From Patescibacteria group bacterium (lineage in GTDB: Bacteria; Patescibacteriota; Patescibacteriia; JAXHNJ01): a DNA stretch of 64,000 bases. The notes beneath the pieces were generated by a model. The model saw only the letters and a program-made list of their open reading frames with translations. It searched no databases and was not told where the DNA came from. Below are positions 1-20,776 of this stretch, piece by piece. The translations under genes were made by a program, and so were the position numbers. Every line of letters begins with the position of its first letter. Within the stretch, counting starts at the first letter, position 1. The DNA lies in contig JAXHNJ010000001.1 of NCBI GenBank assembly GCA_034520665.1, forward strand, positions 258,579 through 322,578, read 5' to 3'.

Positions 1-70
1 AATATAAGATCTAATAGAGTAAACCTAGATTTTCAAAATATTATATTATAATAATTAATCAGATAAAATT

Positions 71-439
71 ATGAACATTGAACAAAATCCAGAAAGAATT
101 CAGAAAAAAATGGAGGAAGCAAACGAGGGTGAGAAAAACGAGAGCGAAACCCAAGCTCTTTCGCCTGTTTTAAAGGAAATTAAAGACATGCCTTTAAATT
201 TTAGTGATGAAGAATTCAGAGAAGCGGCTCTTGAGGGCAAAAATGACACAGAAACTTCCCAAGAAGCTTTTGTAAGAACAGTTAAATCTCTTATTGAAGG
301 TAAAGAACCGACAGCTAATACTTGGGGCAGTATGCTTAGAATTTTAGACAGGCCGGCTATGAAAGAGCATCCAAAGCTAGATTTATTTAGAAATGCTATC
401 CATGAATTAGCTGAAAAATACGGAAAGAAGCTAAATTAG
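71..439 (+). CDS. hypothetical cassette-borne protein (122 aa)
   Basis: Intact ORF in the AT-rich island; acidic and hydrophilic; no recognisable motif. Confidence 0.35.
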   Translation: MNIEQNPERIQKKMEEANEGEKNESETQALSPVLKEIKDMPLNFSDEEFREAALEGKNDTETSQEAFVRTVKSLIEGKEPTANTWGSMLRILDRPAMKEHPKLDLFRNAIHELAEKYGKKLN

Positions 440-470
440 AAAAGAAAATATAAATTAATCTGGATGACGA

Positions 471-650
471 TTTTCAGGATTTTTTGAGAAAAGGGGAGTA
501 GGAGAAGAGGTTTTTTTATTGGTAAAAAAAATGGTAAACTATAAACAGTATCGGATTAATATAATGGTTTAATAAAACTTCGTATAATAAACAAATTTGA
601 GGTGATTATACGAAATCAATTCGTATAATTACGAGTTATCGGAAATAATT
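471..650 (+). promoter_or_regulatory. Conserved ~180-bp upstream module (Rep-L) copy 1, containing the perfect palindrome TTATACGAA-ATCAA-TTCGTATAA and -35/-10-like hexamers
   Basis: Near-identical copies at 471-650, 2820-2990, 5783-5925 and 9218-9395. Each lies immediately upstream of a + strand ORF (674, 3010, 5994, 9413). Confidence 0.6.
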
Positions 651-673
651 TTTTATAACTTAAACCAACTATT

Positions 674-1138
674 ATGAATAATCAACAAGATTTGACAATT
701 TTATTAGAAGAGACTTTTCTCAACATTAGAGTTGCAATATTATTAGAAACACCTAGCGGATTTGTTTTTGAGAAATCAAAAGACGGATATATATTTTTAT
801 TGGGCGGAAGAGTTAAATTAAATGAAACAACCCAAGAGGCAGCCTCAAGAGAAATGTTTGAAGAATTAAAATTGGAAAATATAGACATTGAGATGATTTC
901 GGTTATCGAGAATTTTTTTTCAACAGCTGATAATAAAAATATCCACGAAATTAACTTTGTTTATAAAGCAACTCTTCCGCAGTCCATTGATTTAAGTATT
1001 TTTACATCGGACAATGGCAATAACGGTTATTGTTATATTAAAATGGATAAATTTGACAAGCATGATATCAGACCAAAGATTATTAAGGAATTTCTCAAAA
1101 ACAAAAAATCATTTGTACATCTAATAACCCGCGAATAA
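674..1138 (+). CDS. hypothetical protein (154 aa)
   Basis: ORF directly downstream of Rep-L copy 1; no recognisable motif. Confidence 0.4.
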   Translation: MNNQQDLTILLEETFLNIRVAILLETPSGFVFEKSKDGYIFLLGGRVKLNETTQEAASREMFEELKLENIDIEMISVIENFFSTADNKNIHEINFVYKATLPQSIDLSIFTSDNGNNGYCYIKMDKFDKHDIRPKIIKEFLKNKKSFVHLITRE

Positions 1139-1146
1139 AAATTACA

Positions 1147-1292
1147 TCCGATAACAAAGGATATGAGGTTCAAGAAATTCGGCACAAAATATTACCCAAA
1201 GGATGCCAAATTTCTTTCTCTCAAATTTACAAAAATTCAAAATTAATATTCAAAGGTATTTTTGTAAACATCGCATATCCAGAAACGTTATA
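1147..1292 (+). repeat. attC-like imperfect palindromic cassette-boundary repeat
   Basis: 5' arm GATAACAAAGGATATGAGGTTC, inner inverted repeat TTTACAAAAAT/ATTTTTGTAAA, 3' arm CATATCCAGAAACGTTAT. Starts about 10 bp after the stop codon of the preceding ORF. Confidence 0.55.
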
Positions 1293-1378
1293 ATAAATTT
1301 TGAAATAAGCCAAAAAGCCAATGAAGCAAAAAGCCCCATTCGATAAATTAATAAACTTTAATTATTTTTATAAATAAT

Positions 1379-1996
1379 ATGGAAAAGAAAATTCAGATAT
1401 TTATTATTCATGGTGGAATGACTTTCAAAAACAAGACAGACTATTTGCATTATTTAAAAACCAGAAAAATTTTAATTGAGAAAAAAATCCGTTGGACTGA
1501 TGAATTTTTAAAAAAGAATTTAGATAATAATTTTGAAATTATCAAACCACGTATGCCTTTGCAAGATAATGCCAAATATGAAGAATGGAAAATTCATTTT
1601 GAAAGACATATTCCTTGTTTGAAGAATAACATTATATTAATCGGTTCATGCTTAGGAGGAATTTTTCTCGCAAAATACCTGTCTGAAAATAAATTTCCTA
1701 AGAAAATTCTTTCAATTTACTTAATAGCGACTCCCTTTGATGGTTCAAACAGAAAATATATCTCAGGAAAGTTTAATTTAAAATCGGACTTGTCTTTATT
1801 GGAGAAAAATTCCAAAAATCTATATCTAATGTTTTCTAAAGACGATGATGTTGTTCCAGTTTCTCATGCTGAAAAATTCAGAAAAAAACTAAAAAATGCA
1901 AATATAGTAATTTACGAAAGTAAAAATGGCCATTTCAATGTATCTGAATTTCCTGAAATAATAAAAATGATTAAAACAGATGTTAAAAAGAAGTAG
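1379..1996 (+). CDS. alpha/beta-fold hydrolase-like protein (205 aa)
   Basis: IIHGG oxyanion-hole-like motif and a GSCLGG nucleophile-elbow-like motif; family assignment uncertain. Confidence 0.4.
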   Translation: MEKKIQIFIIHGGMTFKNKTDYLHYLKTRKILIEKKIRWTDEFLKKNLDNNFEIIKPRMPLQDNAKYEEWKIHFERHIPCLKNNIILIGSCLGGIFLAKYLSENKFPKKILSIYLIATPFDGSNRKYISGKFNLKSDLSLLEKNSKNLYLMFSKDDDVVPVSHAEKFRKKLKNANIVIYESKNGHFNVSEFPEIIKMIKTDVKKK

Positions 1997-2049
1997 GTCT
2001 TCTTGCTGTTTCTCTATGACGGCTTATTTCAAAACTCTGAAATTTTTCT

Positions 2050-2598
2050 TTGGAACGTTGCACTAAATTTCAGCCCTTCGGGGAATATAACAAGGATTTA
2101 GAAGTTTCGTTCGGTTTCACCTCACTACAACCAAATTTTGCTTCCTCTATTGGTAAAAATAAGGAAGTCGGCAAAACTTCTCATACACGCGAACGTTGGC
2201 TGACATTCATTTTTATCAATATGCAAACACGTGAAGAAACAAAATCTTTTCTCGAAAAAAAATATCCAGAAATTATGAATTCTACTGGTAAAAATTGGGA
2301 TGTAAAAGATGATAAACTAAAAGAGCGGGTATTAGAAAGGTTGACTGATTATTTTCACCCGATAATTGTCAAAAACTTAAAGTCCATTGAAAATACTTTA
2401 GGAAGAGTGAATCAGCGTCGCGAGAATTTTACATTCTTATTTATAGGCGCACTTTTAGGTGTCGTAGGTGGCTTAGTTGCAAATATATTGCATGATTTAC
2501 TAATAAGATTTTCACTAAAATATTATATTATTATCGCTTCAATTATTTTTTTAGCGGTACTTTTGTCTAGTCTTTTATATATTAACTATAAAAAATAA
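2050..2598 (+). CDS. hypothetical membrane protein (182 aa)
   Basis: Two C-terminal hydrophobic helices; no catalytic motif seen. Confidence 0.35.
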   Translation: MERCTKFQPFGEYNKDLEVSFGFTSLQPNFASSIGKNKEVGKTSHTRERWLTFIFINMQTREETKSFLEKKYPEIMNSTGKNWDVKDDKLKERVLERLTDYFHPIIVKNLKSIENTLGRVNQRRENFTFLFIGALLGVVGGLVANILHDLLIRFSLKYYIIIASIIFLAVLLSSLLYINYKK

Positions 2599-2674
2599 CA
2601 TGTCTATACAAAATAACAAAATATTGAATGAATTTCTGGAATATATTAAAAAAAAGTGAACGGCAGCTAACAGC

Positions 2675-2990
2675 GTGTATGAGGTTCAAGAAAAAGTGCG
2701 TTAATAATTTGAAAGAAAACGCTACGAGGGACGCTGCGCTTTCGCTCCACTCCGCTTCGCTCCGCAAAACATCAGATATAGGCAAACCTTGCGCCAGGCC
2801 TCATTTCTTACCAAGAGGATTTTCAGGATTTTTTGAGAAAAGGGGAGTAGGAGAAAAGGTTTTTTTATGGGTAAAAAAAATGGTAAACTATAAACAGTGT
2901 CGGATTATATAATGGTTTAATAAAACTTCGTATAATAAACAAATTTGAGGTGATTATACGAAATCAATTCGTATAATAACTAGTTGTACG
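2675..2990 (+). repeat. attC-like repeat (AACAGCGTGTATGAGGTTC ... CAGATATAGGCAAACC) fused to Rep-L copy 2
   Basis: Sequence identity to the other boundary repeats. The ORF-track CDS 2628..2912 lies inside this repeat and is judged spurious. Confidence 0.55.
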
Positions 2991-3009
2991 AAATTGTTCT
3001 AATTTTCTA

Positions 3010-3249
3010 GTGGTACCTATAGATTTTGATGTGTCAGTAAACAGATACCTGTCAATAGGGTATTTAGCAAAAAAAGAAAGTGCGGAGTTGAAACATTCGT
3101 TGTGGGCATTACAAAGTCCCGAAAACCTAAAAAAACATCATAAAGTTTTTGAGGAGAAATTTGAGTACTTCCGAAAAGTAGGACATAAGGCAAATGTTAA
3201 CGCGGTGAAAGAGTGGTGGGATCAAAAACTTAAGGAATTAAAAAATTAG
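3010..3249 (+). CDS. hypothetical small protein (79 aa, GTG start)
   Basis: ORF downstream of Rep-L copy 2. Confidence 0.3.
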   Translation: MVPIDFDVSVNRYLSIGYLAKKESAELKHSLWALQSPENLKKHHKVFEEKFEYFRKVGHKANVNAVKEWWDQKLKELKN

Positions 3250-3489
3250 AACAACATCGCACAACACCAAATATCTGGCTTGAAAATTTTTCAGTTATTA
3301 GAAAAAACAAGGAGTGAAAAATTTCCGCGCCTAAATTTCGCACTTTTCCGTTTAGTGGTAATTTAGAGTATAATTAATTTAACAATATAATCAGAATATC
3401 AAAGTTTTTAGCACATAAACCAAAGCGCGAAACTTCAGATATTCGGATACGTTATACGCAATTCAGAATTTTATTTTCAAACAATCACA

Positions 3490-3966
3490 ATGATAAAAAT
3501 AATATATGCAACAATTGAAGATTATGATGACTTTCTTGATGTATTCAAGGAGATTGAAGAATATCATAGAGTAAATGCTTCTTGGAAATTTCAAAAACCT
3601 AAACCTGAATTATTTCCAAGAGATTATTTTCATAAAGTAATTGAAGATGAAAATGGTATATTTTTTTTAGCCAAGGATAATACTAAAATTGTTGGTTATT
3701 TAACAGCTTTTGAAGAAAAATCTCCTGATAGGTCCATGTTAAAACTGAGAAAATATATACAGATAGATGATTTATCTGTAAGAAGCGATTATAGAAAAAA
3801 AGGTATCGGTACTTTACTAATGGATAAACTTGAAGAATTGGCTAAAAAAAATAAAATCTATGAAGTGGAGCTTAATGTATGGTGTTTTAACAAAGGTGCA
3901 ATAAAGTTTTATGAAAATAAAGGATATGAATCATTTACTCAGAAAATGAGGAAAGTTTTAAAATAA
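3490..3966 (+). CDS. GNAT family N-acetyltransferase
   Basis: Motif A (R/Q-x-x-G-x-G/A) seen as RKKGIGTLLM, and an FYENKGY C-terminal motif typical of the GNAT fold. Confidence 0.65.
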   Translation: MIKIIYATIEDYDDFLDVFKEIEEYHRVNASWKFQKPKPELFPRDYFHKVIEDENGIFFLAKDNTKIVGYLTAFEEKSPDRSMLKLRKYIQIDDLSVRSDYRKKGIGTLLMDKLEELAKKNKIYEVELNVWCFNKGAIKFYENKGYESFTQKMRKVLK

Positions 3967-4121
3967 AATTTTGAACTTCTCGCTATCGCTCCGTTCGGCT
4001 CGCTTAACAGAAGTATATGCGGTTTGCTCGTTGCCCTTTGCTTTCCCAAATTCTTCACCACGTTTGAAATTTACCTTAAGCCCGATATTAGATCTAATTT
4101 ACAAAACAATTTTTAAATTAT

Positions 4122-4952
4122 ATGGAAAAAAATCTAGAACAATCACAATCTACTAAAAAAATGGAAAAGCCGGAAGATTGGCTGCCAGGGGGGACTGAGC
4201 AAGAACAATATCTCAAAGAACATAAGGAATGGCGGGGTTTAGAAAAACGATTAGGGCAACCGAGGATATTAAATAATGTTTATTTCCCGGAAATTTTAGC
4301 TTGGATTCAAGAAGAATTTAAAGATAATCCTGATGCTTTTTCTTATTTCGAGGCAGGCTGTGGCCACGGAAATGATTTTCGAACCATAAGAAAAGAGCTT
4401 AAGGCTAGAGGCCGCTATCTCGGCGTTGATATGAGTAAGGCAGAAATCATTCACGGGATGAAATTTTATAAAGACGCGGAGGAAGCAAGAAAATTATTTG
4501 CTCAAGGTGATCTTCGTAATTTAAGACATGTTAATATTTGGGATAGGGGAAAAAGAGATTTTTCTCAACCTGTGGAAATTAAAGATGGCGAATTTGATCT
4601 TATCTATATGGAGGCGGTGTTACACGGACTTGGTTATAGTAAAAAAACCTTTCAAGAGAAAAAGGAATCAGCCCAACAGATGCTTAATGAATTATATCGT
4701 ATTTGTAAAGCTGGAGGAAAATTTTTTGGACGAGCCTCCATATTTGGCTCCACCATTACAAAAGAAAAACAATTTGAACTTCTGCGCAAGACAAATAATT
4801 GGCGCTTCATTCCTGAAGCTGAAGAATTTAAAGAAATACTTAAAAAAGCAGGGTTTACAAATATTAAAGGGGCATTGACTCCACATGAAAAAGCAAAAGA
4901 GGATCCAAATAAAAAAGATATTCTGCGATTTTCTTTTTTAGCTGAAAAATAA
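4122..4952 (+). CDS. class I SAM-dependent methyltransferase
   Basis: Motif I EAGCGHGND, then an acidic residue at the end of beta-2 (LGVDMS). Confidence 0.6.
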   Translation: MEKNLEQSQSTKKMEKPEDWLPGGTEQEQYLKEHKEWRGLEKRLGQPRILNNVYFPEILAWIQEEFKDNPDAFSYFEAGCGHGNDFRTIRKELKARGRYLGVDMSKAEIIHGMKFYKDAEEARKLFAQGDLRNLRHVNIWDRGKRDFSQPVEIKDGEFDLIYMEAVLHGLGYSKKTFQEKKESAQQMLNELYRICKAGGKFFGRASIFGSTITKEKQFELLRKTNNWRFIPEAEEFKEILKKAGFTNIKGALTPHEKAKEDPNKKDILRFSFLAEK

Positions 4953-4985
4953 TTTTTTCAGATTAAAAAATGTATTTTGCAAACA

Positions 4986-5090
4986 GTACATAACAAGGTA
5001 TATCTGGTTTCGCTTCTCCTAAGGTTGTCCCTTGATATAAATTTAATACTTCAGATATACGCGAACGTTAATTGCAATTTAGTTTAGGAC
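4986..5090 (+). repeat. attC-like boundary repeat (ATAACAAGGTATATCTGG ... CAGATATACGCGAACGTTAAT)
   Basis: Outer arms are reverse-complementary. An identical copy sits at 8345-8449 inside the segmental duplication. Confidence 0.55.
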
Positions 5091-5134
5091 TTTCTGACAT
5101 AAAATTTATATAATACATAACCCATTTTTTTCTT

Positions 5135-5608
5135 ATGAAGTTTAGAAAATTTAAGAAGAGTGATATTAGACAGATTGCAAAAATTAAGAATTCTGTTTTT
5201 AGTAGTTTCAATAAATCAGAATATTTTGAAAAAGGAACCGTTTCAAAATATTTAAATTACACCAATTCAAAAAAGTCAGACAAAGAACTCCTTGAAGCAT
5301 TTAAGATAACTAAGGATTCTATTTTTTATGTTGCTGAAGAAAATGATAAAATTTTCGGATATATCAAAGGAAGAAAAAATAGAATCGGGAATTTGTTTGT
5401 TCTTGGTCAAAACCATAAAAAAGGGATTGGTAGAAAATTAGTTAATTTATTTGAAAAAGAAGCAGAAAAACAGAACTCTAAAGAAATTAAGATTCACTCT
5501 TCAATTTATGCAGTTCCTTTCTATCAAAAAAGGGGTTATAAGAAAACTACTGGAATTAGAAATCTTCATGGCTTGAAGATTCAACCAATGAAAAAAGTCC
5601 TAAACTAG
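5135..5608 (+). CDS. GNAT family N-acetyltransferase (paralog 1 of 2)
   Basis: HKKGIGRKLV motif A. 98% identical to the ORF at 8494..8967. Confidence 0.65.
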   Translation: MKFRKFKKSDIRQIAKIKNSVFSSFNKSEYFEKGTVSKYLNYTNSKKSDKELLEAFKITKDSIFYVAEENDKIFGYIKGRKNRIGNLFVLGQNHKKGIGRKLVNLFEKEAEKQNSKEIKIHSSIYAVPFYQKRGYKKTTGIRNLHGLKIQPMKKVLN

Positions 5609-5993
5609 ACTTCTTCGAAATTTTTTCAGAATTCCTCGACCCCGCTGCGCTCTCGCCTATGGCTCGGGGTAATTAACAGGATTTTAACGGAAAAATACTC
5701 GGCTCGCATTTTCCCAAATCGCCTACGGCAAAACTTCTCTAAATCCTGAAGTTGTGCAAGACCCCATTTCTTGCCAAGAGGATTTTCAGGATTTTTTGAG
5801 AAAAGGGGAGTAGGGGAAGAGGTTTTTTATTGGTAAAAAAAATGGTAAACTATAGACAGTATCGGATTATATAATGGTTTAATAAAACTTCGTATAATAA
5901 CGAGTTAAGTGAAATTGAGAATTTGTCCTATGAGATTTAAATGGGCACGATTTTTTCCGAAAACTTTATATCACTACATACTTTTATTAATTT

Positions 5994-6470
5994 ATGATGG
6001 ACATAATCAAAATAAGCGAAGATTTCGCAAAAAAAGAATATGCAAAGCATGATGAACTTCACCAATGGAATCATGTTGAAGATGTGATGAATGTGGCTTT
6101 GAAATTATCCGAGTTTCATCCAGAAGCAAATTTAGAAATTTTAAAACTTGCTGTTATCTTTCATGATATTAGTTATGAACAATATGAAACTCATGTTGAA
6201 GAGTCCATGAAAGTAGCAGAAAAATTTCTAAAAGAGCAGGATTATCCGGAAGATAGAATCAAGAAAGTTTTGCAAGTGATGATTTCTCATTCTGGCCCTC
6301 ACAGAAGAAAACTCGGTGAAGCAAAAATGATTGAGGGAAAAATCATTTATGATTCTGATAAATTCCATCTTGCAAAAACTAGAGAGGGATTTGAAAAATA
6401 TTTTGATAGATTTTATCTGGATGAAACTCGTGATATGATTAAAAAAACGTGCCCTGAATTCTTTAAATAA
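5994..6470 (+). CDS. HD-domain phosphohydrolase
   Basis: H...HD motif (HDELHQWNHVED ... IFHDISY). Confidence 0.55.
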   Translation: MMDIIKISEDFAKKEYAKHDELHQWNHVEDVMNVALKLSEFHPEANLEILKLAVIFHDISYEQYETHVEESMKVAEKFLKEQDYPEDRIKKVLQVMISHSGPHRRKLGEAKMIEGKIIYDSDKFHLAKTREGFEKYFDRFYLDETRDMIKKTCPEFFK

Positions 6471-6708
6471 ATGTAAACTTGACGGACAAATTCTCAACTT
6501 GCTCACTATCGTTCGCACCACGCTGCGCTCTCACTTCGTTCGACCCTCATTTAACAAGGGATAAAAGGAAAATTGCTCGGCTCGCAATTTTCCCAAATTT
6601 TCTCCACTACGTTCTGAAAACTTCTTTTATCCCTGATGTTATATGAAATAAATTTTGGCGCGCTAGAAAAAAACCTTAATAAACAAATTCCCCCTAAGTA
6701 TTATTAAC

Positions 6709-7368
6709 ATGAAAAAATCTAAACTTCTCTGGTATATTTTAACAATAGTCCCAATCGCATTATTAATTCTTGGATATATTTTTCCCTCATCATTCTTTGG
6801 AAGTCAAGAGGCAATTAGAGATTTTGTTTCTCAATTTGGAATTTTTGCCCCTCTTGCCTTCATTGTGCTTCAAATCCTGCAAGTTGTAGTAACGCCCCTT
6901 AGTCATTATACTGTTTCAATAGCGGGCGGATTTATTTTTGGAACATGGCAAGGTTTTATTTATAATTGGATTGGTAGAGTAATTGGAACAGCAATCGCTT
7001 TTTATCTTGCTCGAATTTTTGGAAGAAAAATTATTAAGCATCTTGTTAAAAAAGAAACTATCCAAAAATACGATTATATATTTGAAAAAGGAAAACTCTT
7101 ACTGTTCTTAGCATATTTCTTGCCATTGTTCCCAGATGATGAACTTTCATATCTTGCAGGACTTTCAGCAATTAGTCCAAGAATCTTTTTACCTTTAATG
7201 GCGATTGGGCATATTAGTGGAAGTTTAAGTTTAGCTTACATCGGCAACGGGATACAATCTTTCAAAGAGCCGATGTTTATAATACTCTCATTAATAACTT
7301 TAATTGGGGGAATTTGGTTTGCATGGCATTATCAAAAAGTTAAAAATAATGCTAATACCAAAGTGTAA
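6709..7368 (+). CDS. DedA/TVP38/TMEM64 family membrane protein
   Basis: Multi-TM protein with a G-x-x-x-FG...F-x-P...S-x-AG-like signature (GGFIFG ... LAGLS). Confidence 0.6.
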   Translation: MKKSKLLWYILTIVPIALLILGYIFPSSFFGSQEAIRDFVSQFGIFAPLAFIVLQILQVVVTPLSHYTVSIAGGFIFGTWQGFIYNWIGRVIGTAIAFYLARIFGRKIIKHLVKKETIQKYDYIFEKGKLLLFLAYFLPLFPDDELSYLAGLSAISPRIFLPLMAIGHISGSLSLAYIGNGIQSFKEPMFIILSLITLIGGIWFAWHYQKVKNNANTKV

Positions 7369-7627
7369 GATGCGCGCCAAAATTTATTTCACAAAACGGG
7401 CGGGCAAGGAGTTAGAAGAACAAGCTAGAAAAAATCTTAAAAGAGAATTAGCAATGTTGTCGTAAAAATTTTTCTTAACATCAACTAATACTGTGTATCT
7501 GGTTCCACAAATGAGAAATAATTGATTATTTTTTACATTCTTGGTTGCCCTTTTACAATTTTATAAAAGAGAAAGGCCGAGTCCCGCAAATCTGCGAAAC
7601 CCGGCCGAATGGATGGGGGCGGGGCTT

Positions 7628-7798
7628 TCAATACCAGCCCGCGTCTCCTGCTTCCTTAATTTGCTGCGCCTTGGTCTTTACTTCCTGAAGAGCCTTAAGC
7701 ACCTTTGGGTCGTCCTTGTACTTCTCATCGAGTTGGTTGAGGAGATACAGGATTTCCCCTGCTGCCGTGGATGCTCCTACTCCGCTAATCATATTCAT
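7628..7798 (-). CDS. small hypothetical protein (56 aa) with strong Shine-Dalgarno sequence, on a GC-rich insert
   Basis: Minus-strand ORF MNMISGVGASTAAGEILYLLNQLDEKYKDDPKVLKALQEVKTKAQQIKEAGDAGWY, preceded by GGAGGTG. Local GC about 50% against about 30% in flanks. The overlapping + strand ORF 7541..7903 looks like a translation artefact. Confidence 0.35.
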   Translation of the reverse strand: MNMISGVGASTAAGEILYLLNQLDEKYKDDPKVLKALQEVKTKAQQIKEAGDAGWY

Positions 7799-8493: not shown

Positions 8494-8967
8494 ATGAAGT
8501 TTAGAAAATTTAAGAAGAGTGATATTAGACAGATTGCAAAAATTAAGAATTCTGTTTTTAGTAGTTTCAATAAATCAGAATATTTTGAAAAAGGAACCGT
8601 TTCAAAATATTTAAATTACACCAATCCAAAAAAGTCAGACAAAGAACTCCTTGAAGCATTTAAGATAACTAAGGATTCTATTTTTTATGTTGCTGAAGAA
8701 AATGATAAAATTTTCGGATATATCAAAGGAAGAAAAAATAGAATCGGGAATTTGTTTGTTCTTGGTCAAAACCATAAAAAAGGGATTGGTAGAAAATTAG
8801 TTGATTTATTTGAAAAAGAAGCAGAAAAACAGAACTCTAAAGAAATTAAGATTAACTCTTCAATTTATGCAGTTCCTTTCTATCAAAAAAGGGGTTATAA
8901 GAAAACTACTGGAATTAGAAATCTTCATGGCTTGAAGATTCAACCAATGAAAAAAGTCCTAAACTAA
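8494..8967 (+). CDS. GNAT family N-acetyltransferase (paralog 2 of 2)
   Basis: Differs from 5135..5608 by three substitutions (S45P, N104D, H130N). Confidence 0.65.
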   Translation: MKFRKFKKSDIRQIAKIKNSVFSSFNKSEYFEKGTVSKYLNYTNPKKSDKELLEAFKITKDSIFYVAEENDKIFGYIKGRKNRIGNLFVLGQNHKKGIGRKLVDLFEKEAEKQNSKEIKINSSIYAVPFYQKRGYKKTTGIRNLHGLKIQPMKKVLN

Positions 8968-9007
8968 ACTTCTTCGAAATTTTTTCAGAATTCCTCGACC
9001 CCGCTGC

Positions 9008-9084
9008 CTGCCCGCCATAGTCTACGGCATCAGGCCTTGGCTCGCCCGCCTGAGTTGCTCAGGCAAGTCGGGCGGCAGGCGGGC
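9008..9084. repeat. 77-bp GC-rich palindromic insertion (REP/MITE-like) present in only one copy of the duplicated repeat
   Basis: CTGCCCGCC...GCCTGAGTTGCTCAGGC...GGCAGGCGGGC has terminal and internal inverted repeats. The paralogous position 5647/5648 is uninterrupted. Confidence 0.6.
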
Positions 9085-9412
9085 GCTCTCGCCTATGGCT
9101 CGGGGTAATTAACAGGATTTTAACGGAAAAATACTCGGCTCGCATTTTCCCAAATCGCCTACGGCAAAACTTCTCTAAATCCTGAAGTTGTGCCAAACCC
9201 CATTTTTTGCCAAGAGGATTTTCAGGATTTTTTGAAACAAGGGAAGTAGGAGAAGAGGTTTTTTTATTGGTAAAAAAAATGGTAAACTATAGACAGTGTT
9301 GGATTAATATAATGGTTTAATAAAAATTCGCATAATAAACAAATTTGAGGTGATTATACGAAATCAATTCGTATAATAACGAGTTATCGGAAATAAAAAT
9401 AGTAAAATTTTT

Positions 9413-9973
9413 ATGGGTAATAAAAAAATCTTCACAATCAGCTCTGATTTTGAATTAATTAAAAAACCAAAATGGTTAGATGGCTTTCGTATTAAGCACG
9501 ATAAACCTTTTCCATATCACGTAACTTTAAAAACATGTACATACTTTGATATTGATAATTTTAAAAATTTAAAAAAAGACTTAAGTGGTATTGTTAAAAA
9601 ATATAGCGAGATCAAGGTTATATTTAACAAACTTTTTATAAGTCGCTCTTCAAAGGGCGAATGTATTATGATAAAAGCAGATAATAATAAAAAGCTAAAT
9701 GAACTCCAGAAGGAAATTGTGAAAAAGTTTTCAAAATATGGGAATTATATAGCGAAAAAATACGAAAAATTCGAGAAAAGTTTTATTCCCCATATTACTA
9801 TCGCGCGACATCTTTCATCAGAACAATTGATAATTGCAAAAAAGGATTTAGGGAAAAAACTATTTTGTGAAGCTGTAGTCAAAGGGCTTTCTTTAATGAT
9901 AGTGGAAAATAATACTGATGAAGAATGGTTAAACCACAACAATAAAAGTTATTACAAGTTACAGAACAAATAG
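9413..9973 (+). CDS. 2H phosphoesterase superfamily protein (LigT/2'-5' RNA ligase-like)
   Basis: Two H-x-T/S-x motifs (YHVTLK and PHITIA) about 90 aa apart. Confidence 0.55.
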   Translation: MGNKKIFTISSDFELIKKPKWLDGFRIKHDKPFPYHVTLKTCTYFDIDNFKNLKKDLSGIVKKYSEIKVIFNKLFISRSSKGECIMIKADNNKKLNELQKEIVKKFSKYGNYIAKKYEKFEKSFIPHITIARHLSSEQLIIAKKDLGKKLFCEAVVKGLSLMIVENNTDEEWLNHNNKSYYKLQNK

Positions 9974-10157
9974 AATTTTACTATTTTTACCTTCCGATAA
10001 CAGCGTGTATGCGGTTCGGACTTTCCCTGAAAACCCTCTCCCATATTTTTGCTCCCGTTGGTCGCAAAAACATCGCATACGCTGGAACGTTAAGTGAAAT
10101 TGCGGAGGGGCGCCTAATACGATACTTTTTATAAGTGAGTGAATTTACAATACTATT

Positions 10158-10832
10158 ATGACAACAAAACTTCGCGAACCAGATGAAGAAAATTATGTCT
10201 TTACCGAGGGTATTGATTATTCAAAAACAGAAAAAAAATTTATCTGGGGAACTGGTGATAAAGACACTCTGGAGCTTCTGAATGATATTAAAATTCGAGG
10301 CAAGTGGCTAAACCTTGCCGCTGGTGATGGACGTTACAATTTGAATTTGTTGGAAAAAGTTAATTCAGTTGTTGCTTCAGATATTGATGAAGGTGCGCTT
10401 GGCAAATTGAAACAAAACACACCTAACGAACTAAGAGAAAAACTACAAACAGAAATTTTTGATATAACTAAACCATTTCCATTTGAAGATGAATCATTTG
10501 ACGGTGTGTTTTGCACTGGGACATTACATCTTTTTCCAACTGAAATTTTGCAGCAAATTATTTTAGAGATTGATAGAATTCTAAAATCCAATGGCAAACT
10601 GATTATAGACTTTGCAACTGACATCAAACGTATTCTGCCAGATGGCAAACTTTATATCAGAAAATCTGAACCTCAATACACTGCCGAAGAAGCCGCAAAA
10701 TTTCTCAGAGAATTATTGCACAATTATCAAATTCAAATTGTAGAATCAGAAGTTCCAGAGGAAGAAATTAAGACGCGAGGTTTTGTTTATAGATTTAGTT
10801 GTAAATTCATTTTACTAACAGCAGATAAATAA
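10158..10832 (+). CDS. class I SAM-dependent methyltransferase
   Basis: Motif I LNLAAGDGRYN, then VVASDID (acidic residue at the end of beta-2). Confidence 0.6.
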   Translation: MTTKLREPDEENYVFTEGIDYSKTEKKFIWGTGDKDTLELLNDIKIRGKWLNLAAGDGRYNLNLLEKVNSVVASDIDEGALGKLKQNTPNELREKLQTEIFDITKPFPFEDESFDGVFCTGTLHLFPTEILQQIILEIDRILKSNGKLIIDFATDIKRILPDGKLYIRKSEPQYTAEEAAKFLRELLHNYQIQIVESEVPEEEIKTRGFVYRFSCKFILLTADK

Positions 10833-11172
10833 TGACGGCGACCCCCACAACTCTCGCCAGCCCTTCGGGACGTTGCACTAAATTTTTGCCCTTCGGGACA
10901 TATAACAAGGGATATGAGGTTACGAAGTTTTGCAGACTTCTTTACTCAAATTCGCCTACGGCGAACTTCTCATAAGCCCGATGTTAAATGAAATTTTGCC
11001 TTGAAATGTGAAGTGAAAAATATTCGTGCTATTAAAAAAAGATAGTTCGTAATTTCAAAATTTATTTTATTTATCGGCAAAACTTCACTTAACACTGTGT
11101 ATCTGGTTCCGTAAAAGAGAAAAATTAAATAATTCTCTATTTTTAAAAGCCTTTTTTCAATTTTTTTACAAA

Positions 11173-11200
11173 GAAAAAACCAGTTGTTAGGGACAACTGG
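11173..11200 (-). terminator. Rho-independent terminator for the minus-strand gene 11217..11591
   Basis: Minus strand reads CCAGTTGTCCCTAACAACTGG followed by a T-run: an 8-bp stem plus TTTTTTT. Confidence 0.55.
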
Positions 11201-11216
11201 AAAACCCTTATTTTGT

Positions 11217-11591
11217 TTAGAGGACTGCGTAGTACGGCATTCCGCCAGGCAGGGCTGACCACATGGCACGCGGCATAAGGCATTTGGCCTTGCCGATCGC
11301 GGTGCCGAGTTGAAAGAGCTGGTCCATGCGTTGGTGCAGATCTGTCCACTGATTGCCATGCTTGTCGTTACAGGCATTCAAAAAGGACGTGCCGCCACCA
11401 CCGGACATCTTGAACTCGTCGGGTAATTCATCCAGTATTTCCTCAATCTCGGCCTTATGGCTTTCCAGTCTGTCGGTATGAAAACCAACATTCTGGGTTA
11501 TACCCTCGGCTTTGACATAATTGTTGGTTTCCTCATCTTCTTTGAACAGACAGTCTATGAAGATTGCATTTACGCGTTCGGGATCAATCAT
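11217..11591 (-). CDS. hypothetical protein (124 aa), compositionally foreign (higher GC), minus strand
   Basis: ORF has its own terminator and sits inside a split boundary repeat. GC about 47%. No motif recognised. Confidence 0.45.
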   Translation of the reverse strand: MIDPERVNAIFIDCLFKEDEETNNYVKAEGITQNVGFHTDRLESHKAEIEEILDELPDEFKMSGGGGTSFLNACNDKHGNQWTDLHQRMDQLFQLGTAIGKAKCLMPRAMWSALPGGMPYYAVL

Positions 11592-11907
11592 CTTCGTTCC
11601 TCCTTTGTTAAGGTTATCAGCAAAATTACTGATTATTAAGTATGGCAGATTTCTTATTTCATGTCAAGCTTGGCGACCAAAAAATTGAAAAAAGGGCTTT
11701 AATAGCTTTAATATAAGGTAAATTATTATTTTTTCTCTTTTACTTCACCCAAATTGTTCGTTCCTCGCAAATTCTCATAATCCTAACGTTATGTGAAATA
11801 GCCAGAAATTTCTTAATTATTTTTTAAGATTTTTTTGGCAATTTATTTCACGTCGAACATAACTTGTGGTATAATTTAGTCAGTTTAATTAATTAACCAA
11901 TAAAACT

Positions 11908-12207
11908 ATGTCAGAAAAATTCGAAGGCAATTTGCCACCTCAAGAGCAAAAAGAAGGTTATTCAGCAGATTTCGTAGCCAAGGTAAAAGAAGTATTTCCA
12001 GATTGGGATCGCATGAATCAAGCGCTGGAATCTGGTAGTGAGTGGGTCGGTCGTTATCTTGATGATTCGCGCGGTTTTTCAATGAAGCCAGATGAAATTG
12101 TCCAAGCTCTTGAAGGCGGCGATCAAGAAAAAGTTCTTGAGGCGGCAAGGAAAGCCAAAAAGATTGATGAGCTTTATAAAGAATGGTCTGAATCACGGGA
12201 AAAATAA
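11908..12207 (+). CDS. hypothetical acidic protein (99 aa)
   Basis: Preceded by an extended -10 promoter: TTCACG, 17 nt, TGgTATAAT at about 11850-11878. The + strand frame looks more protein-like than the overlapping minus-strand frame. Confidence 0.4.
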   Translation: MSEKFEGNLPPQEQKEGYSADFVAKVKEVFPDWDRMNQALESGSEWVGRYLDDSRGFSMKPDEIVQALEGGDQEKVLEAARKAKKIDELYKEWSESREK

Positions 12208-12256
12208 ATTGCCAAAAAATAATAATAAGGAATAGAAATTTCTGTCAACATCACAT

Positions 12257-12400
12257 AACAGCGTGTATCTGGTTCGGCAAATTTGACACAATTAGATTCA
12301 AAAGGAATGTCAAATCTACCTCTCCCAAATTTCGCAAAAAAATACTATTTTTAAAGGAATTTTTGCGAAACTTCAGATACACGCAAACGTTATACGCAAT
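12257..12400 (+). repeat. attC-like boundary repeat, the best-preserved copy
   Basis: Outer arms ATAACAGCGTGTATCTGGTTCGG ... CTTCAGATACACGCAAACGTTATACG. Two inner inverted repeats: AAATTTGACA/TGTCAAAT and TTTCGCAAAAA/TTTTTGCGAAA. Confidence 0.6.
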
Positions 12401-12589
12401 TCAAAAAATATTTTTTTTATAAGGAATTTTGACAGGCTTTTTAAAAAGGGGAATAAATTTGTTTTTTTATTAATTAGAAAGGGGTAAATGGTGTTTTCTC
12501 CGCTATCGCTCCGAAAACGATTTATTATTGGAAAAAGACAAAAAGTTTTATATACTTAAATTAGTTTTAACTTATTAAAGGATTAAAAT

Positions 12590-15337
12590 ATGAGTGAAGA
12601 ATTACTACAAAGAGGACTAACTAAAAAAGGAATTACATTCATAGATTATGAATTTTTTCCGTTACACTCAACGACCTTAAAACAATATAAAAAGTTAAAA
12701 ATAATTCCTAATAAAGATTATGATAAATATGAAATTAGAAAACCTGACGGGCTTTTAGTAGACAGAGGAAATAAATCAAAGCCGAAAGTTGTTACAGTTT
12801 TGGAATACAAAAAACCTTCTGAATTTCAAACAGATAAACAAAAAAGAGAAGCGATTGAACAATGCAATGATTTGTGTCAAGAGCTTGAAGCAAAAATAGG
12901 AATTATTACAGACGGAATTGTTACTTATTGGATAAATCCAAACCACGCAGATAAAAATAACAAATACAAAGATAGAACAACTGGGAAGAAGCGAAGTTTT
13001 TCTTATATCTTAAATGATGATAAGCAAAGATTACAAAAGAAGTTTTTCATTAAAGAGAACGATAAAAAAGATATTTCAAAATTGAATAATGAAACAAGAG
13101 AAACTTACAGATTAGTTAAAAGAATTTTAGAAGAAACAAATAATAAAAATTCTGTTTTGAAAGCAACAGAAAAAACAGACCCAACCCCTCTCGCGAGAAG
13201 TGTTTGGCAAAGTATTTACATAAGCACAAAAGATAATCCAACAGCTTGTCTTTATAATGTTGTTGAGATTTTTATCTTTAAGTTTCTGAGTGATTTAGGA
13301 GTTTTAAAAGGAGTTAATAGTTTTGATTATTTATTGAAACTTTACAAAACAGAAGATAGTAAAACAGTTTTAAAACACTATGCTAAAACTTGCAGAGAAG
13401 AAATAAGAAATTTATTTGAAGCGGGAGATGACGGGACAACAATAATTAATGGAACTATTTTTGTAAATAAAGACGGAAGCCCTGTTTTATCACAAGCGAC
13501 TTTATTTAAAGACACTATTGAAAAATATGCAAAGTTTGGAGATTTAAAAAATATTGACAAGGGATTTAAAACAAAATTGTTCGAAACATTTTTGAAGCAG
13601 AGTAAGGACAAAAGTAAGTTAGGACAATTTTTTACACCGAGAAAAGTTGTTAAGGGAATTGTTGAAATGGCTGATGTGGATAAAGCGGAATTTATATGCG
13701 ACCCATTTTGCGGTGTTGGTGGTTTTCTTTTAGAGCCATTTCAAATATCTCAAAATTTGAAAAATAAATTTATTCCAAAGAATAATGAAATAAATCCGCC
13801 TGTAAAACTTTTAGGATATGATACAGGAAGAGAAGATAACGACGAACAAAAGAGGACTATTATTTTAGCAAAGGCGAATATGCTTATTTATTTGTCTGAT
13901 TTAGTCGAAAAAAATTCTACATTAAACGAGGAATTTTCAAAAATAATAAATAATACTTTCCACTTTTTATCGGATAGTAATCTTGGAACACTAAAAGAAA
14001 CTGAAAGATTTGAAAGAAATGAGGATAAGCCTGATTTAATTATTACCAATCCTCCATATATCACAAGCGGAGTAACTACAATAAGAAAACAGATTGAGGA
14101 AGATGGTTTAACTGATTATTATAAAAATAGTGGAAAGGGAATGGAAGGTTTATGCTTAAAATGGATAATAAAAAATTTGAAAAGAAAAGGACAAGCATTT
14201 ATTGTTTTGCCAGATAGTATTTTTAATGTTTTTGCCAATAAAGTTTTAAGAGATGAAATAAAAAAGAATTGTTATATTAATTGTATTATATCTTTACCCG
14301 CAAAAACTTTCTTTAATACTCCAAAGAAAACTTATGTTTTAGGAATTACAAAAAAAGATTGTGATGAAGATGAATGTGAAAATCTTAAACAGGATTTTCC
14401 TGTATTCACTTATTTAGTTTCTAATATCGGGGAAACATTAGATATTAACCGATTCGAAATTCCTGAAAATGATTTGGATAATGCGAAGAATTTGTTTAAT
14501 CAATTTAAAGGAAGTCCAAATAATTTTCAAACAGATGACTCACGATGTAAATTACAACCTATTGAAAAATTTGAAAATGAGAAATATTGGATAATTGATA
14601 AATGGTGGAGTAAAAAAGAAAAAATAGAAATTGAAATTGAAGAAGAAGATGAAAGTTTAACTATTGATGAATTTAAAGATCAAATTGAAAAAACAAAGGA
14701 AAAATTAGGAGAATTAGAATGGGTGGCAGATAAAACAAAAGAGAGAAAATATAAAACCAAAATGATGTATGTAACGGATGATAAGATAAATAAAAATAGG
14801 AAAGAAGAAGGAATTTTTGAAGCAGAAAAAGGAAATGCAAAATACACAAAAAAATATATGCACGACCATAAAGGTGAGTTTCCTGTTTATTCTTCTCAAA
14901 CTTCTAATTTAGGCGAGATAGGAAGCATAGACACCTATGATTATGAAGAAGAATGTTTTACTTGGACAACCGATGGAACTTATGTTGGAACTGTTTTTTA
15001 TAGAAATGGTAAGTTTTCAATAACCACTCATTGCGGAATTTTAAGAGTTAAACCAGAATACAAAGATAAAGTTGATTTTGAATATTTGAATTTTATCTTA
15101 AATCAAACACTCCCTAATTATAAATTAGGTGAAGGTTCTAATAAAAGATTAGGGACTGAAAGAATGAAGGAAATTCAAATAGAAATCCCAATAAACAAAA
15201 ACGGAGAATTTGACTTAGATAAACAAAAAGAAATTGCTGAAAAGTATAAGAAAATAGAAGAAATCAAGGAAAAACTTAAAGACAATTATGAAAAGATGAT
15301 AAATTCAAAAGTTCAGATTATTGAAGCAGAAGAATAA
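12590..15337 (+). CDS. Type IIG (MmeI-like) single-chain restriction-modification enzyme: N-terminal PD-(D/E)xK nuclease, gamma-class N6-adenine methyltransferase, C-terminal target-recognition region
   Basis: N-terminal KPDGLLVD...VLEYKK matches PD...ExK. Methyltransferase motif I FFTPRKVV...DPFCGVGGFL. Motif IV ITNPPY. The 915-aa length matches MmeI architecture. Confidence 0.7.
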   Translation: MSEELLQRGLTKKGITFIDYEFFPLHSTTLKQYKKLKIIPNKDYDKYEIRKPDGLLVDRGNKSKPKVVTVLEYKKPSEFQTDKQKREAIEQCNDLCQELEAKIGIITDGIVTYWINPNHADKNNKYKDRTTGKKRSFSYILNDDKQRLQKKFFIKENDKKDISKLNNETRETYRLVKRILEETNNKNSVLKATEKTDPTPLARSVWQSIYISTKDNPTACLYNVVEIFIFKFLSDLGVLKGVNSFDYLLKLYKTEDSKTVLKHYAKTCREEIRNLFEAGDDGTTIINGTIFVNKDGSPVLSQATLFKDTIEKYAKFGDLKNIDKGFKTKLFETFLKQSKDKSKLGQFFTPRKVVKGIVEMADVDKAEFICDPFCGVGGFLLEPFQISQNLKNKFIPKNNEINPPVKLLGYDTGREDNDEQKRTIILAKANMLIYLSDLVEKNSTLNEEFSKIINNTFHFLSDSNLGTLKETERFERNEDKPDLIITNPPYITSGVTTIRKQIEEDGLTDYYKNSGKGMEGLCLKWIIKNLKRKGQAFIVLPDSIFNVFANKVLRDEIKKNCYINCIISLPAKTFFNTPKKTYVLGITKKDCDEDECENLKQDFPVFTYLVSNIGETLDINRFEIPENDLDNAKNLFNQFKGSPNNFQTDDSRCKLQPIEKFENEKYWIIDKWWSKKEKIEIEIEEEDESLTIDEFKDQIEKTKEKLGELEWVADKTKERKYKTKMMYVTDDKINKNRKEEGIFEAEKGNAKYTKKYMHDHKGEFPVYSSQTSNLGEIGSIDTYDYEEECFTWTTDGTYVGTVFYRNGKFSITTHCGILRVKPEYKDKVDFEYLNFILNQTLPNYKLGEGSNKRLGTERMKEIQIEIPINKNGEFDLDKQKEIAEKYKKIEEIKEKLKDNYEKMINSKVQIIEAEE

Positions 15338-15625
15338 ACTTTTGAATAAGGAGTTTTGAAAAATGGAATTCACCCCTAACCCCCGCCCGCCTCGCTACGC
15401 GAAGCGTTGCGGGCAGGCCTCTGCCCAAAATTCAAAACGGGAAAAATCAAATTTATAAGAATTAAAGAAAGTCTATCATGAAGAATAAGAACGAAAAATA
15501 TTTTTTGAACTCACTCCGCTTTGCTCCGCAAAACATCAAATATAGGCAAACCTTGTGCCAGACCTCATTTCTTGTCAAGAGGATTTCCAGGACTTTTTAA
15601 GAAAATGAAATTAATTTATTAAAAT

Positions 15626-16258
15626 ATGATCCTAAAAATATTATACAATAATAGGGCTAAAGAAGGTTTTAAAGAAGGTTGGGGATTTTCTTGCTTGATT
15701 GAATCTATTAAGGAAAATAAGAAAATCTTGTTTGACACTGGGGCTGACTTTGAAACTCTTAGTTTTAACGCTCAAAAACTAGGGGTAAATTTTAAAAATA
15801 TTGACAAGGTAGTTATTTCCCATGACCATGATGACCACACCGGCGGCTTGGCAGGAGTTTTAAAGGAAAATAATAAGGTAAAAGTTATCTGGCCGAAAAA
15901 TGAAAATAGTTTTAGAATTATTAGCGGTATTTTTTCAACCGGCTCTTTGAAAGCAGCCATAGACTTAAAAGAGCAGTCTTTGTTTTTGGCAACAAAGAAA
16001 GGTTTAGTCATTATAGTCGGTTGTTCTCATCCCGGAGTGGATAAAATTCTTCAAAGAGTAAAAGAGGTTAGGTCTTTAAAAAATAATAAAAAGATTTACG
16101 CTATTATTGGTGGTTTTCACGGCTTTAATAAATTAGATGAATTAGAAGGAATTGAAGTTATTGGCGCTTGCCATTGTACGTCACATAAACAAGAAATTAA
16201 GAAGAAATTTCCTGATCAGTTTAAAAAAATAAGAGCCGGTGATATAATAAAATTATAA
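15626..16258 (+). CDS. metallo-beta-lactamase-fold hydrolase
   Basis: HxHxDH motif (ISHDHDDHTGG), and downstream His and Asp residues (GFHG). Confidence 0.6.
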   Translation: MILKILYNNRAKEGFKEGWGFSCLIESIKENKKILFDTGADFETLSFNAQKLGVNFKNIDKVVISHDHDDHTGGLAGVLKENNKVKVIWPKNENSFRIISGIFSTGSLKAAIDLKEQSLFLATKKGLVIIVGCSHPGVDKILQRVKEVRSLKNNKKIYAIIGGFHGFNKLDELEGIEVIGACHCTSHKQEIKKKFPDQFKKIRAGDIIKL

Positions 16259-16370
16259 AAATAAATAATATATTTATGCCCGGCCAGTGGCTCAAGATTT
16301 GCCTTTTAAGAAAATGGAAAGAAAAGGGCCAGCTTTATAAAAATATTTTACCCAATGGAGAAAAAATAAA

Positions 16371-19918: not shown

Positions 19919-20043
19919 CAAAATAATTTTAACTTGACTTAATTTTAAACTTGTATTAAGATATTAATACGGTGGCTTCCTCAAAAAAAGATTATTTCTT
20001 TTGAGGGAGTTTTTATTTTTGTGATAAATTAATAAATTATATT

Positions 20044-20766: not shown

Positions 20767-20776
20767 TTTGAAACTT

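Follow-up and report, generated by a model that had tools for sequence, protein, structure and literature searches.

Does the tandem series of small open reading frames (ORFs), each followed by an imperfect palindrome, in a genome of the Patescibacteria (candidate phyla radiation, CPR) represent an integron, and if so, which recombinase would serve it? The locus lies on contig JAXHNJ010000001.1 (assembly GCA_034520665.1), of which positions 258,579 to 322,578 were analysed; this whole stretch of 64 kb is hereafter referred to as the window. An initial annotation had described an integron-like cassette array with attC-type sites, and the folding of the sites, their linkage to flanking DNA, their split R boxes and the recurrence of the cassettes in other genomes all agree with this description. 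We consider it highly probable that window positions 1-15,552 correspond to the distal portion of an integron-type cassette array on the chromosome, with a mechanism that would involve a short recombinase and an attI site. What was computed here comprises the sites and the covariation of their stems, the linkage of each site to the ORF that precedes it, the splitting of the R box and, in related genomes, the association between a recombinase and attI; the short recombinase would be the catalyst and may also be encoded in the source genome.

The palindromic sites and their linkage to cassettes

An unsupervised repeat search revealed overlapping families of short direct repeats across 1-15.6 kb, which proved to be the two arms of one imperfect palindrome and were then anchored on their conserved AAC and GTT triplets. 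The left arm (R''-L'') has the form ..TCAnnT-AAC-A-(11 nt)-GGTTC and the right arm (L'-R') the form AAAC(T/A)TC-nn-ATA-(5 nt)-(G/A)AAC-GTT-A-nnn-GAAAT. Within 1-15,552, 15 left arms and 18 right arms were found, all on the + strand and each just 3' of an ORF, the distance from the stop codon to the next R'' being 14-144 nt. AAC was present in 14 of the 15 left arms (AAT in the other) and GTT in 15 of the 18 right arms, few of which had the strict GTTRRRY form, the usual form being GTTAnnnGAAAT. Thirteen left/right pairs, spaced 75-190 nt apart, constitute ordinary sites, and two further pairs are spaced 526 and 697 nt apart; no left partner was recognisable for the right arms at 2057, 10872 and 15552. 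All 15 repeat positions given in the initial annotation fell on or just before an anchored arm, the site at 2089-2195 having been overlooked.

A naive scan for AAC...GTT palindromes did not distinguish real sites from the AT-rich background, and arm profiles were used instead. These profiles, trained on the window's own sites, gave nothing at E<0.1 in the 16-64 kb region and nothing on the minus strand of the array; within the 64-kb window, none of the repeats, which the initial annotation had considered might be scattered genome-wide, was found outside the array. Independent support came from loci fetched via the recombinase alone, in which the same profiles recovered arms. An Rfam search yielded no match at gathering thresholds or at E<=1, and a search for tRNA and tmRNA genes found none. 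The window opens with a probable degenerate R' box, and the array therefore appears to extend 5' of position 1, as had been anticipated. The initial annotation had also drawn attention to the co-orientation of the ORFs and the AT-richness of the island. The + strand orientation was borne out, but says little about the array, since all listed ORFs of at least 120 aa in the 16-64 kb region have it too; the AT-richness is present but slight (GC 0.319 vs 0.342).

The right-arm pattern has 19 fixed bases, with about one chance occurrence expected in 596 Gb (our own estimate), and matched more than 120 stretches of species-representative genomes. Most of the matches were to metagenome-assembled genomes (MAGs) of Patescibacteria (Moran-, Magasanik-, Uhr-, Falkow-, Kuenen-, Peregrini- and Saccharibacteria, among others); some were labelled as DPANN or other archaea (Pacearchaeota, Woesearchaeota, Altiarchaeota), and some carried other bacterial labels.

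From the window and the related loci, 150 unique sites (left arm 40-260 nt before the right arm) were extracted, and 137 distinct arm pairs were aligned over 60 columns for the analysis of covariation, the arms having been found separately by sequence profile and not by pairing. In these 137 sites, the proposed stem was paired in 93.6% of cells, against 77.9% in shuffled alignments and only 22-43% when the partner columns were slid. Double-sided changes affected 382 cells, compared with 133 in the shuffles, and none of 500 shuffles attained 382; 8 of the 14 pairs of the inner helix (an 11-bp L helix and a 3-bp GTT/AAC helix) change on both sides. The outermost element of the consensus hairpin is the AAC/GTT R box. 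Inwards of it come an asymmetric internal loop, in which a single A on the 5' arm faces four nucleotides (nAAC) on the 3' arm, the covarying 11-bp L helix with a conserved central TAT/ATA, a bulge of 2 nt, (A/T)T, on the 3' arm, and the 3-bp inner helix, followed by a variable loop. Individual window sites fold according to this consensus, that at 6553-6638 folding best.

The surplus unpaired bases of the CPR family are located on the crossover-bearing R'-L' arm and are 11 bp apart, which is not the classical attC arrangement. In classical attC sites, the extrahelical bases are the bottom-strand T12'' and G20'' (PMC2727003), with a spacing of 6 bp (PMC7439510). The attC of aadA1 from plasmid R100, taken as a control, lies on the strand of the gene and 3' of it, with intI1 divergent upstream, and folds with single-base bulges on the R''-L'' arm. 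The additional domain of IntI reportedly holds the extrahelical attC bases, and the altered bulge geometry therefore fits a recombinase without this domain. Of the folding features that the initial annotation had proposed to check, the stems were recovered and covary, but the classical extrahelical bases on the R''-L'' arm were not found; the repeats do have a consensus of their own, as it had proposed, with the unpaired bases on the arm opposite to that in classical attC.

The 9 nt preceding the left AAC were paired at 5.12 of 9 positions with the cassette's own 5' end, that is, the bases after the previous GTT, compared with 3.81 of 9 for the bases after the site's own GTT and 4.05 for random flanks (n=58, p=1.4e-4). 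This R-box complementarity extends up to 25 nt in some cassette families (11788 with 12233). We interpret such a split R box as the mark of a site cut at one end and re-closed on circularisation of the cassette. Of 161 pairs of same-loop sites (>=80% identity) from different loci, 49 had a common upstream flank and only 2 a common downstream flank (p=6e-18). The upstream flank, and not the downstream one, is therefore co-inherited with the site, indicating that the site belongs to the preceding ORF and that crossover takes place at R', as it does in integrons. A crossover at R'', by which the sites would be classical attCs on the other strand, was ruled out by this linkage test. The comparison with related genomes that the initial annotation had suggested showed that cassettes recur among different neighbours: the DedA, 99-aa, 79-aa and GNAT cassettes are 74-90% identical to counterparts in four related loci (L041, L096, L103 and L007), and L041 has two copies of the DedA cassette (82% identity), located behind different attCs.

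Recombinases of related loci and the proposed mechanism

The IntI1 query used is considered valid because it matched NCBIfam PRK15417 over its full length, end to end, at 799.5 bits. It identified an IntI1-like recombinase (E 1e-36 to 1e-46) in 21 of the 120 tiles (up to 8 kb each) that had been selected by the site pattern. In 20 of these 21 loci, the gene is located at the array head and is divergent from the array, which is the classical intI-attI-cassette layout; the single archaeal locus with a recombinase (L052) encodes a XerA-type enzyme that is not in the divergent position. The initial annotation had raised the absence of an integrase from the genome as a possible objection; a partner recombinase does exist in related loci.

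The short recombinase comprises about 270 aa, retains the catalytic R, K, HxxR, H and Y residues and has an IntI-like C-terminal ..IKSPL. In the alignment, the enzymes of the relatives are without the ~42 aa that form the additional domain in IntI1. Four of five CPR proteins passed the cut-off (220 bits) of NF040815 (XerA_Arch, site-specific tyrosine recombinase/integron integrase), with scores ranging from 218 to 237 bits, the fifth scoring 218.3. TIGR02249 (integron integrase) was matched in two stretches and at 209-234 bits, under its 265-bit cut-off, and the proteins were also under the bacterial XerC and XerD cut-offs. Among PDB entries, XerA (5hxy, 7e-44) and VchIntIA/IntI4 (2a3v, 2e-43) were matched about equally well, and XerD far more weakly (1.5e-24). 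A metagenome scan that started from the recombinase and used no attC pattern showed that 7 of the 8 closest homologues (43-61% identity) are preceded by site arms on the opposite strand; in the same scan, the site family was found in none of the more distant homologues and in none of those of IntI length (~936-nt matches). No recombinase of the source genome was among the best 120 matches of the family.

In 17 related loci, a conserved box precedes the start of the recombinase gene, with a gap, where measured, of roughly 55-130 nt. Its sequence is (A)ATTCG(T/C)ATA-n-AAAC(G/T)A^GTTA-nnn-GAAAT, also written TTCGYATAnAAACGA^GTTAnnnGAAAT, and comprises two inverted 11-nt arms separated by a spacer of 7 nt, the cassette junction (caret) falling where the spacer meets the right arm. 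The related loci therefore have a site with a GTT crossover adjoining the recombinase, as is characteristic of attI. The arms of the box (TTCGCATAA.. / TTATGTGAAAT) are close to those of E. coli dif (GCGCATAA / TTATGTTAAAT; GGTGCGCATAA-TGTATA-TTATGTTAAAT). The strict box occurred 12 times in 835 kb, 7 times beside the recombinase, 3 times in the window and twice in recombinase-less tiles, and a looser pattern added a fourth window copy at 620-646.

In the window, the box terminates an ORF-less module of ~190 nt, present in four copies and as one 50-nt stub, that had gone unremarked in the initial annotation. The modules begin directly after an R' crossover point, and a cassette ORF (NUDIX, 79-aa ORF, HD or 2H) comes next. 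Judging from their sequence, they appear to be orphan attI copies carried into the array, and they may provide internal promoters or additional insertion points. Their left part contains a minus-strand frame (..FSQKILKILLARN) faintly like the consensus of the recombinase N-terminus (..ELRLRN); it could possibly be a decayed stub of the recombinase gene, but the stretch lacks a start codon and is too short for a firmer assignment.

According to the mechanism that we propose, a tyrosine recombinase would cut at G^TT of the R' box, the cassettes would thereby be excised as circles, and the circles would be inserted at the dif-like attI adjoining the recombinase gene. The enzyme would be the Xer/XerA/IntI-like protein of ~270 aa, without the IntI additional domain, that related genomes encode divergently at the array head. 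In the source genome, this head would lie upstream of the window, and the four attI-like modules would have been carried into the array. The array works like an integron, yet it is set apart from the classical integron family because the additional domain of IntI is missing from the recombinases of the relatives and the extrahelical bases are not placed as in classical attC. The initial annotation had left room for a new attC-like family or a new capture system, and the comparative data give substance to this proposal with a divergent Xer/XerA-like recombinase without the additional domain and a dif-like attI. For a broader proposal, namely that CPR bacteria, and perhaps DPANN archaea, harbour a distinct and widespread lineage of integrons, we consider the chances to be evenly balanced. 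In such a lineage, a Xer/XerA-like integrase, maybe the cell's own Xer, would never have gained the additional domain, the insertion site would be dif-like, and the hairpins would mimic this site with a non-classical geometry.

Several observations weigh against the interpretation of the locus as an integron-type array with its own recombinase. No tyrosine recombinase is encoded in the 64-kb window, as the initial annotation had stated and the search of the window proteins confirmed, so the array may be a CALIN (cluster of attC sites lacking an integron integrase). The window sites at 2057, 10872, 2788, 4087 and 15552 are degenerate, and the 11091/11788 arms show no L-box pairing. The related sites were gathered with patterns and profiles derived from the window, which inflates their apparent sequence conservation. 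The recombinase family comprises more than 7,295 clusters at 90% identity and may be a housekeeping Xer; its annotations vary, from XerD (often) to tyrosine recombinase and 'site-specific tyrosine recombinase/integron integrase'. It is a serious, if lesser, possibility that the recombinase and its site serve ordinary CPR Xer/dif dimer resolution and that the cassettes are dif mimics hitch-hiking at dif, in the manner of integrative mobile elements exploiting Xer recombination (IMEX) such as CTX phage, a variant of the interpretation preferred here. This would fit a family that is found throughout CPR with a uniform length of ~270 aa, an adjoining 11-7-11 inverted repeat with arms near those of E. 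coli dif, and a gene that is located among core genes in four long contigs and is accompanied by its dif-like site even in a locus nearly devoid of an array (L206). A 'Cand' subgroup of candidate-phyla Xer-related recombinases has, moreover, been assumed to do the Xer job (PMC8138268). However, in L205 (JGI Ga0378408_0000012, locus 6192-6794) the recombinase gene is 6 kb from dnaA, which is not the location expected for a terminus, and the arrays are integron-like in every respect tested.

The array matches integrons in its layout, in its boxes (R'', ..TAAC; R', GTTA..) and in the end at which crossover occurs, and archaeal integrons with canonical IntI have been published (PMC9668308), so that a canonical IntI with the additional domain, acting on the sites by the standard bottom-strand mechanism, might be encoded just upstream of the window. 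We regard this as improbable, given that all related loci with the site family have the short form as their adjacent recombinase, that no IntI-length homologue in the metagenome scan was accompanied by these sites, and that the unpaired bases are on the arm opposite to T12''/G20'', which the additional domain of IntI binds. The repeats are also intergenic palindromes located after stop codons, and some are good hairpins, as would be expected of repetitive extragenic palindromic (REP) or miniature inverted-repeat transposable element (MITE)-like sequences, or of terminators, with no role in recombination. This explanation is hardly tenable for a family that is confined to a single strand and absent from the other 48 kb of the window, has conserved AAC/GTT ends split between cassette ends, shows an asymmetric linkage to flanking DNA and is tightly associated with a divergent recombinase; terminator-like sites, for their part, were not enriched (8 vs 9.5 expected).

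Cassettes and other features of the window

The features of the array are listed in Table 1. The Pfam assignments agreed with the cargo described in the initial annotation, namely NUDIX, Ser_hydrolase, three GNAT and two S-adenosylmethionine (SAM) methyltransferase genes, HD, 2H/LigT, VTT/DedA and a metallo-beta-lactamase (MBL) fold. Of the ORF previously called a Type IIG restriction-modification (RM) enzyme, Pfam upheld the two parts of a 915-aa N6_Mtase and Methylase_S fusion.

Table 1. Sites, cassettes, attI-like modules and hairpin units of the window (the caret marks the crossover)
Feature	Coordinates	Strand	Details
Left arms (R''-L''), first A of AAC	1153, 2089, 2669, 3263, 4006, 4992, 5675, 6553, 7487, 8351, 9111, 9999, 10904, 11091, 12257	+	
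Right arms (L'-R'), G of GTT	1287, 2057, 2195, 2788 (CTT), 3451, 4087 (ATT), 5067, 5751, 6638, 8013, 8426, 9187, 10089, 10872, 10983, 11788, 12389, 15552 (CTT)	+	
Probable degenerate R' box at window edge	1-20	+	AATATAAGATCTAAT resembles the R' region GATATTAGATCTAAT at 4084-4098
Cassette ORF	71-439	+	122 aa, no Pfam family
attI-like module A, left-truncated	466-646	+	Core 620-646, G of GTT 635; repeat search; core TTCGTATAATTACGAG^TTATCGGAAAT matches the recombinase-proximal site of related loci
NUDIX cassette	636-1287	+	ORF 674-1138, attC 1153-1287
Ser_hydrolase cassette	1288-2057	+	ORF 1379-1996, degenerate site (only R' 2057 recognisable)
ORF-less mini-cassette	2058-2195	+	attC 2089-2195
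Cassette, 125-aa ORF	2196-2788	+	ORF 2221-2598 (no family), attC 2669-2788 (R' CTT)
attI-like module B	2789-2994	+	Core 2968-2994, G of GTT 2983
Cassette, 79-aa ORF	2984-3451	+	ORF 3010-3249, attC 3263-3451; 90% identical to L103
GNAT cassette	3452-4087	+	ORF 3490-3966, attC 4006-4087 (R' ATT)
SAM methyltransferase cassette	4088-5067	+	ORF 4122-4952, attC 4992-5067
GNAT cassette	5068-5751	+	ORF 5135-5608, attC 5675-5751
attI-like module C, short form	5752-5915	+	Core 5889-5915, G of GTT 5904
HD cassette	5905-6638	+	ORF 5994-6470, attC 6553-6638
DedA/VTT cassette	6639-8013	+	ORF 6709-7368, R''-like box 7372-7397, long-stem attC-like hairpin 7487-8013
Minus-strand unit in hairpin 7487-8013	7575-7855	-	Promoter TTGACA-17-TAGGAT, ORF 7628-7798 (56 aa), terminator with 14-pair stem; GC 0.49
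Cassette, 71-aa ORF	8014-8426	+	ORF 8096-8311, attC 8351-8426; 3' part an exact copy of 4886-5067
Duplicate GNAT cassette	8427-9187	+	ORF 8494-8967, attC 9111-9187; 77-nt GC-rich palindromic insertion 9008-9084
attI-like module D	9188-9394	+	Core 9368-9394, G of GTT 9383
2H/LigT phosphoesterase cassette	9384-10089	+	ORF 9413-9973, attC 9999-10089
SAM methyltransferase cassette	10090-10872	+	ORF 10158-10832, degenerate site (R' 10872)
ORF-less mini-cassette	10873-10983	+	attC 10904-10983; conserved in L077, L051 and L004
Cassette consisting of long-stem attC-like hairpin	10984-11788	+	Hairpin 11091-11788 (stems 11111-11166 with 11679-11743)
Minus-strand unit in hairpin 11091-11788	11180-11667	-	Promoter TTGACA-17-CATACT, ORF 11217-11591 (124 aa), terminator; GC 0.47
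Cassette, 99-aa ORF	11789-12389	+	Conserved 120-nt leader (TG-extended -10), ORF 11908-12207, attC 12257-12389
N6_Mtase and Methylase_S cassette	12390-15552	+	Leader 12390-12589, 915-aa ORF 12590-15337, last degenerate site (R' CTT 15552)
Distal end of array	15553-16258	+	attI-like stub 15553-15605, MBL-fold ORF 15626-16258, no site after

Two of the three GNAT genes are near-exact duplicates. An exact duplication of 300 nt (4886-5185 = 8245-8544) begins within two different ORFs and runs on at ~98% identity (5068-5900 ~ 8427-9337) through the GNAT cassette and the next attI module. The insertion in the second copy (ctgcccgcc...ggcgggcag) is 5' of R'', and a related motif occurs at 15383-15420. 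The DedA ORF is flanked by a 26-nt inverted repeat (6638-6663 / 7372-7397, 92% complementary), the box at 7372-7397 thus pairing with the cassette's own 5' end; this second copy ends in the R''-like CACAAAAC, with no L box after it. From its sequence, the box looks like a remnant of the original attC of the DedA cassette. In the cassette at 11789-12389, the first 25 nt are complementary to the extension of R''.

The two long attC-like hairpins (7487-8013 and 11091-11788) each contain a complete minus-strand transcription unit in the loop and have long extra stems (runs of 13-15 bp). Both units have a TTGACA-17-TG promoter and an intrinsic terminator, and their GC content is 0.47-0.49 vs 0.32 around them. 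The 124-aa protein encoded in one of them has 695 homologues and no Pfam family, and represents a widespread family in Patescibacteria; among the best 120 of the 695, identities were 63-88%, and the named ones were from Patescibacteria or unclassified bacterial MAGs. A homologous 'gene-in-hairpin' unit was found in a related locus (L078).

A conserved leader of ~140-200 nt precedes methylase/RM-type cassettes in the window (12390-12589) and in L120, L105, L055, L036 and L076 (first-cassette leaders). It contains AGAGGGG..GTGTTTTCTCCGCTATCGCTCCGAAAACGA, with a GTTTTC/GAAAAC hairpin, gave no match in Rfam and could be a regulatory RNA. The 120-nt leader at 11789-11910 (TTCACG-17-TATAAT, with a TG-extended -10) was also found in L041, L069, L062, L033, L070, L067 and L020; since the small ORFs behind it differ, whereas the 187-nt attC at their end is the same, the leader and attC seem to be reused as a 'frame' with varying ORFs. 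GC-rich CGCTnCGCTC tracts (e.g., ACGCTGCGCTTTCGCTCCACTCCGCTTCGCTCCGC) are present 5' of R'' or in the loop of many sites of the window (2715-2765, 3975-4005, 5635-5672 and 6490-6552) and of L041. Promoter-like sites were not enriched in the array overall (77 vs 65.7 +/- 8.1 expected).

The MBL-fold protein at the end of the array (15626-16258) is assigned to PF23023 (Anti-Pycsar_Apyc1) in the precomputed Logan annotation, our own Pfam scan having given only Lactamase_B families, and its gene is a possible anti-defence gene. Outside the array, AT-rich islands (GC 0.25-0.27) without attC arms were observed at 20000-23000 and 41000-44000, the former with an AbiEi/AbiEii toxin-antitoxin pair at 21422-22743 (Pfam tags of the precomputed annotation). 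In L205, the accessory genes of the platform beside the recombinase encode a Y1_Tnp (IS200/IS605-type) transposase and an HNH protein, and the entire platform is 6 kb from dnaA.

Significance and comparison with known systems

Integrons are defined by IntI with its additional domain, and their descent from Xer-like recombinases has been inferred, not observed. The CPR system combines hairpin cassettes with an enzyme resembling Xer and an attI resembling dif, and makes this origin directly testable. If the broader proposal of a distinct lineage of integrons is true, it would provide a living example of the transition from Xer/dif to integron, and integron finders that require the IntI domain would systematically overlook complete integrons in much of bacterial diversity. 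The system would also account for the maintenance and exchange, by CPR bacteria with reduced genomes, of accessory genes, including those for restriction-modification, acetyltransferases, methyltransferases and possible anti-defence functions. Archaeal MAGs also contain the site motif; if it marks real integrons in them, surveys reporting 'CALIN'-only genomes or no integrons there would be biased by the IntI-domain criterion. CPR bacteria are not mentioned in the description of archaeal integrons, which stresses the additional domain of its IntIs (PMC9668308), nor are integrons in CPR mentioned in the IntegronFinder 2.0 survey (PMC9024848). No description of such arrays in CPR/Patescibacteria was found in our literature search, to which subscription journals were mostly inaccessible.

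REP and MITE sequences are dispersed genome-wide, in either orientation and with no tie to a recombinase, unlike the CPR sites. The pdif modules of Acinetobacter plasmids share with the CPR loci gene-sized modules bounded by Xer-type sites. However, pdif sites are 28-bp double-stranded XerC/XerD sites of alternating orientation, whereas the CPR sites are long co-oriented hairpins that split on integration. CTX phage integrates via a folded single-stranded hairpin that mimics a double-stranded site; IMEX elements of this kind are phages or islands, in contrast to the single-gene cassettes found here. The single-recombinase Xer/dif systems (XerS/difSL, XerH/difH and archaeal XerA/dif) share an 11-7-11 dif-like site beside the gene, and the CPR recombinase, a simple two-domain protein within the ~270-300 aa of such enzymes, is as near to XerA (5hxy) as to IntI4 (2a3v). 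These systems have no arrays of tens of ORF-plus-hairpin cassettes, unlike the CPR loci.

Archaeal integrons (Ghaly et al. 2022, PMC9668308) likewise form arrays in uncultivated lineages with small genomes, mostly without a detectable IntI, but their IntIs have the additional domain and their attCs the classical fold, unlike the CPR family. The closest parallels are with sedentary chromosomal integrons, such as the Vibrio superintegron, and with CALINs, which share the tandem array of mostly promoterless, co-oriented ORFs and the palindromes with R'' (..AAC) and R' (GTT..) ends. Chromosomal integrons also share the G^TT crossover and the inheritance of the site with the upstream ORF, the divergent tyrosine recombinase and insertion site at the array head (here in relatives), the within-lineage similarity of the site consensus and the type of cargo (acetyltransferases, methyltransferases, restriction-modification and orphan ORFs). 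The CPR system differs from them in that its recombinase is without the IntI additional domain, its attI is a well-conserved dif-like inverted repeat, and copies of attI are found inside the array. Its sites are much more conserved in sequence, have an R box that reaches 9-25 bp, and present a 4-vs-1 loop and a 2-nt bulge, 11 bp apart and on the R'-L' arm, in place of the two single bases, spaced by 6 bp and on the R''-L'' arm, of classical sites.

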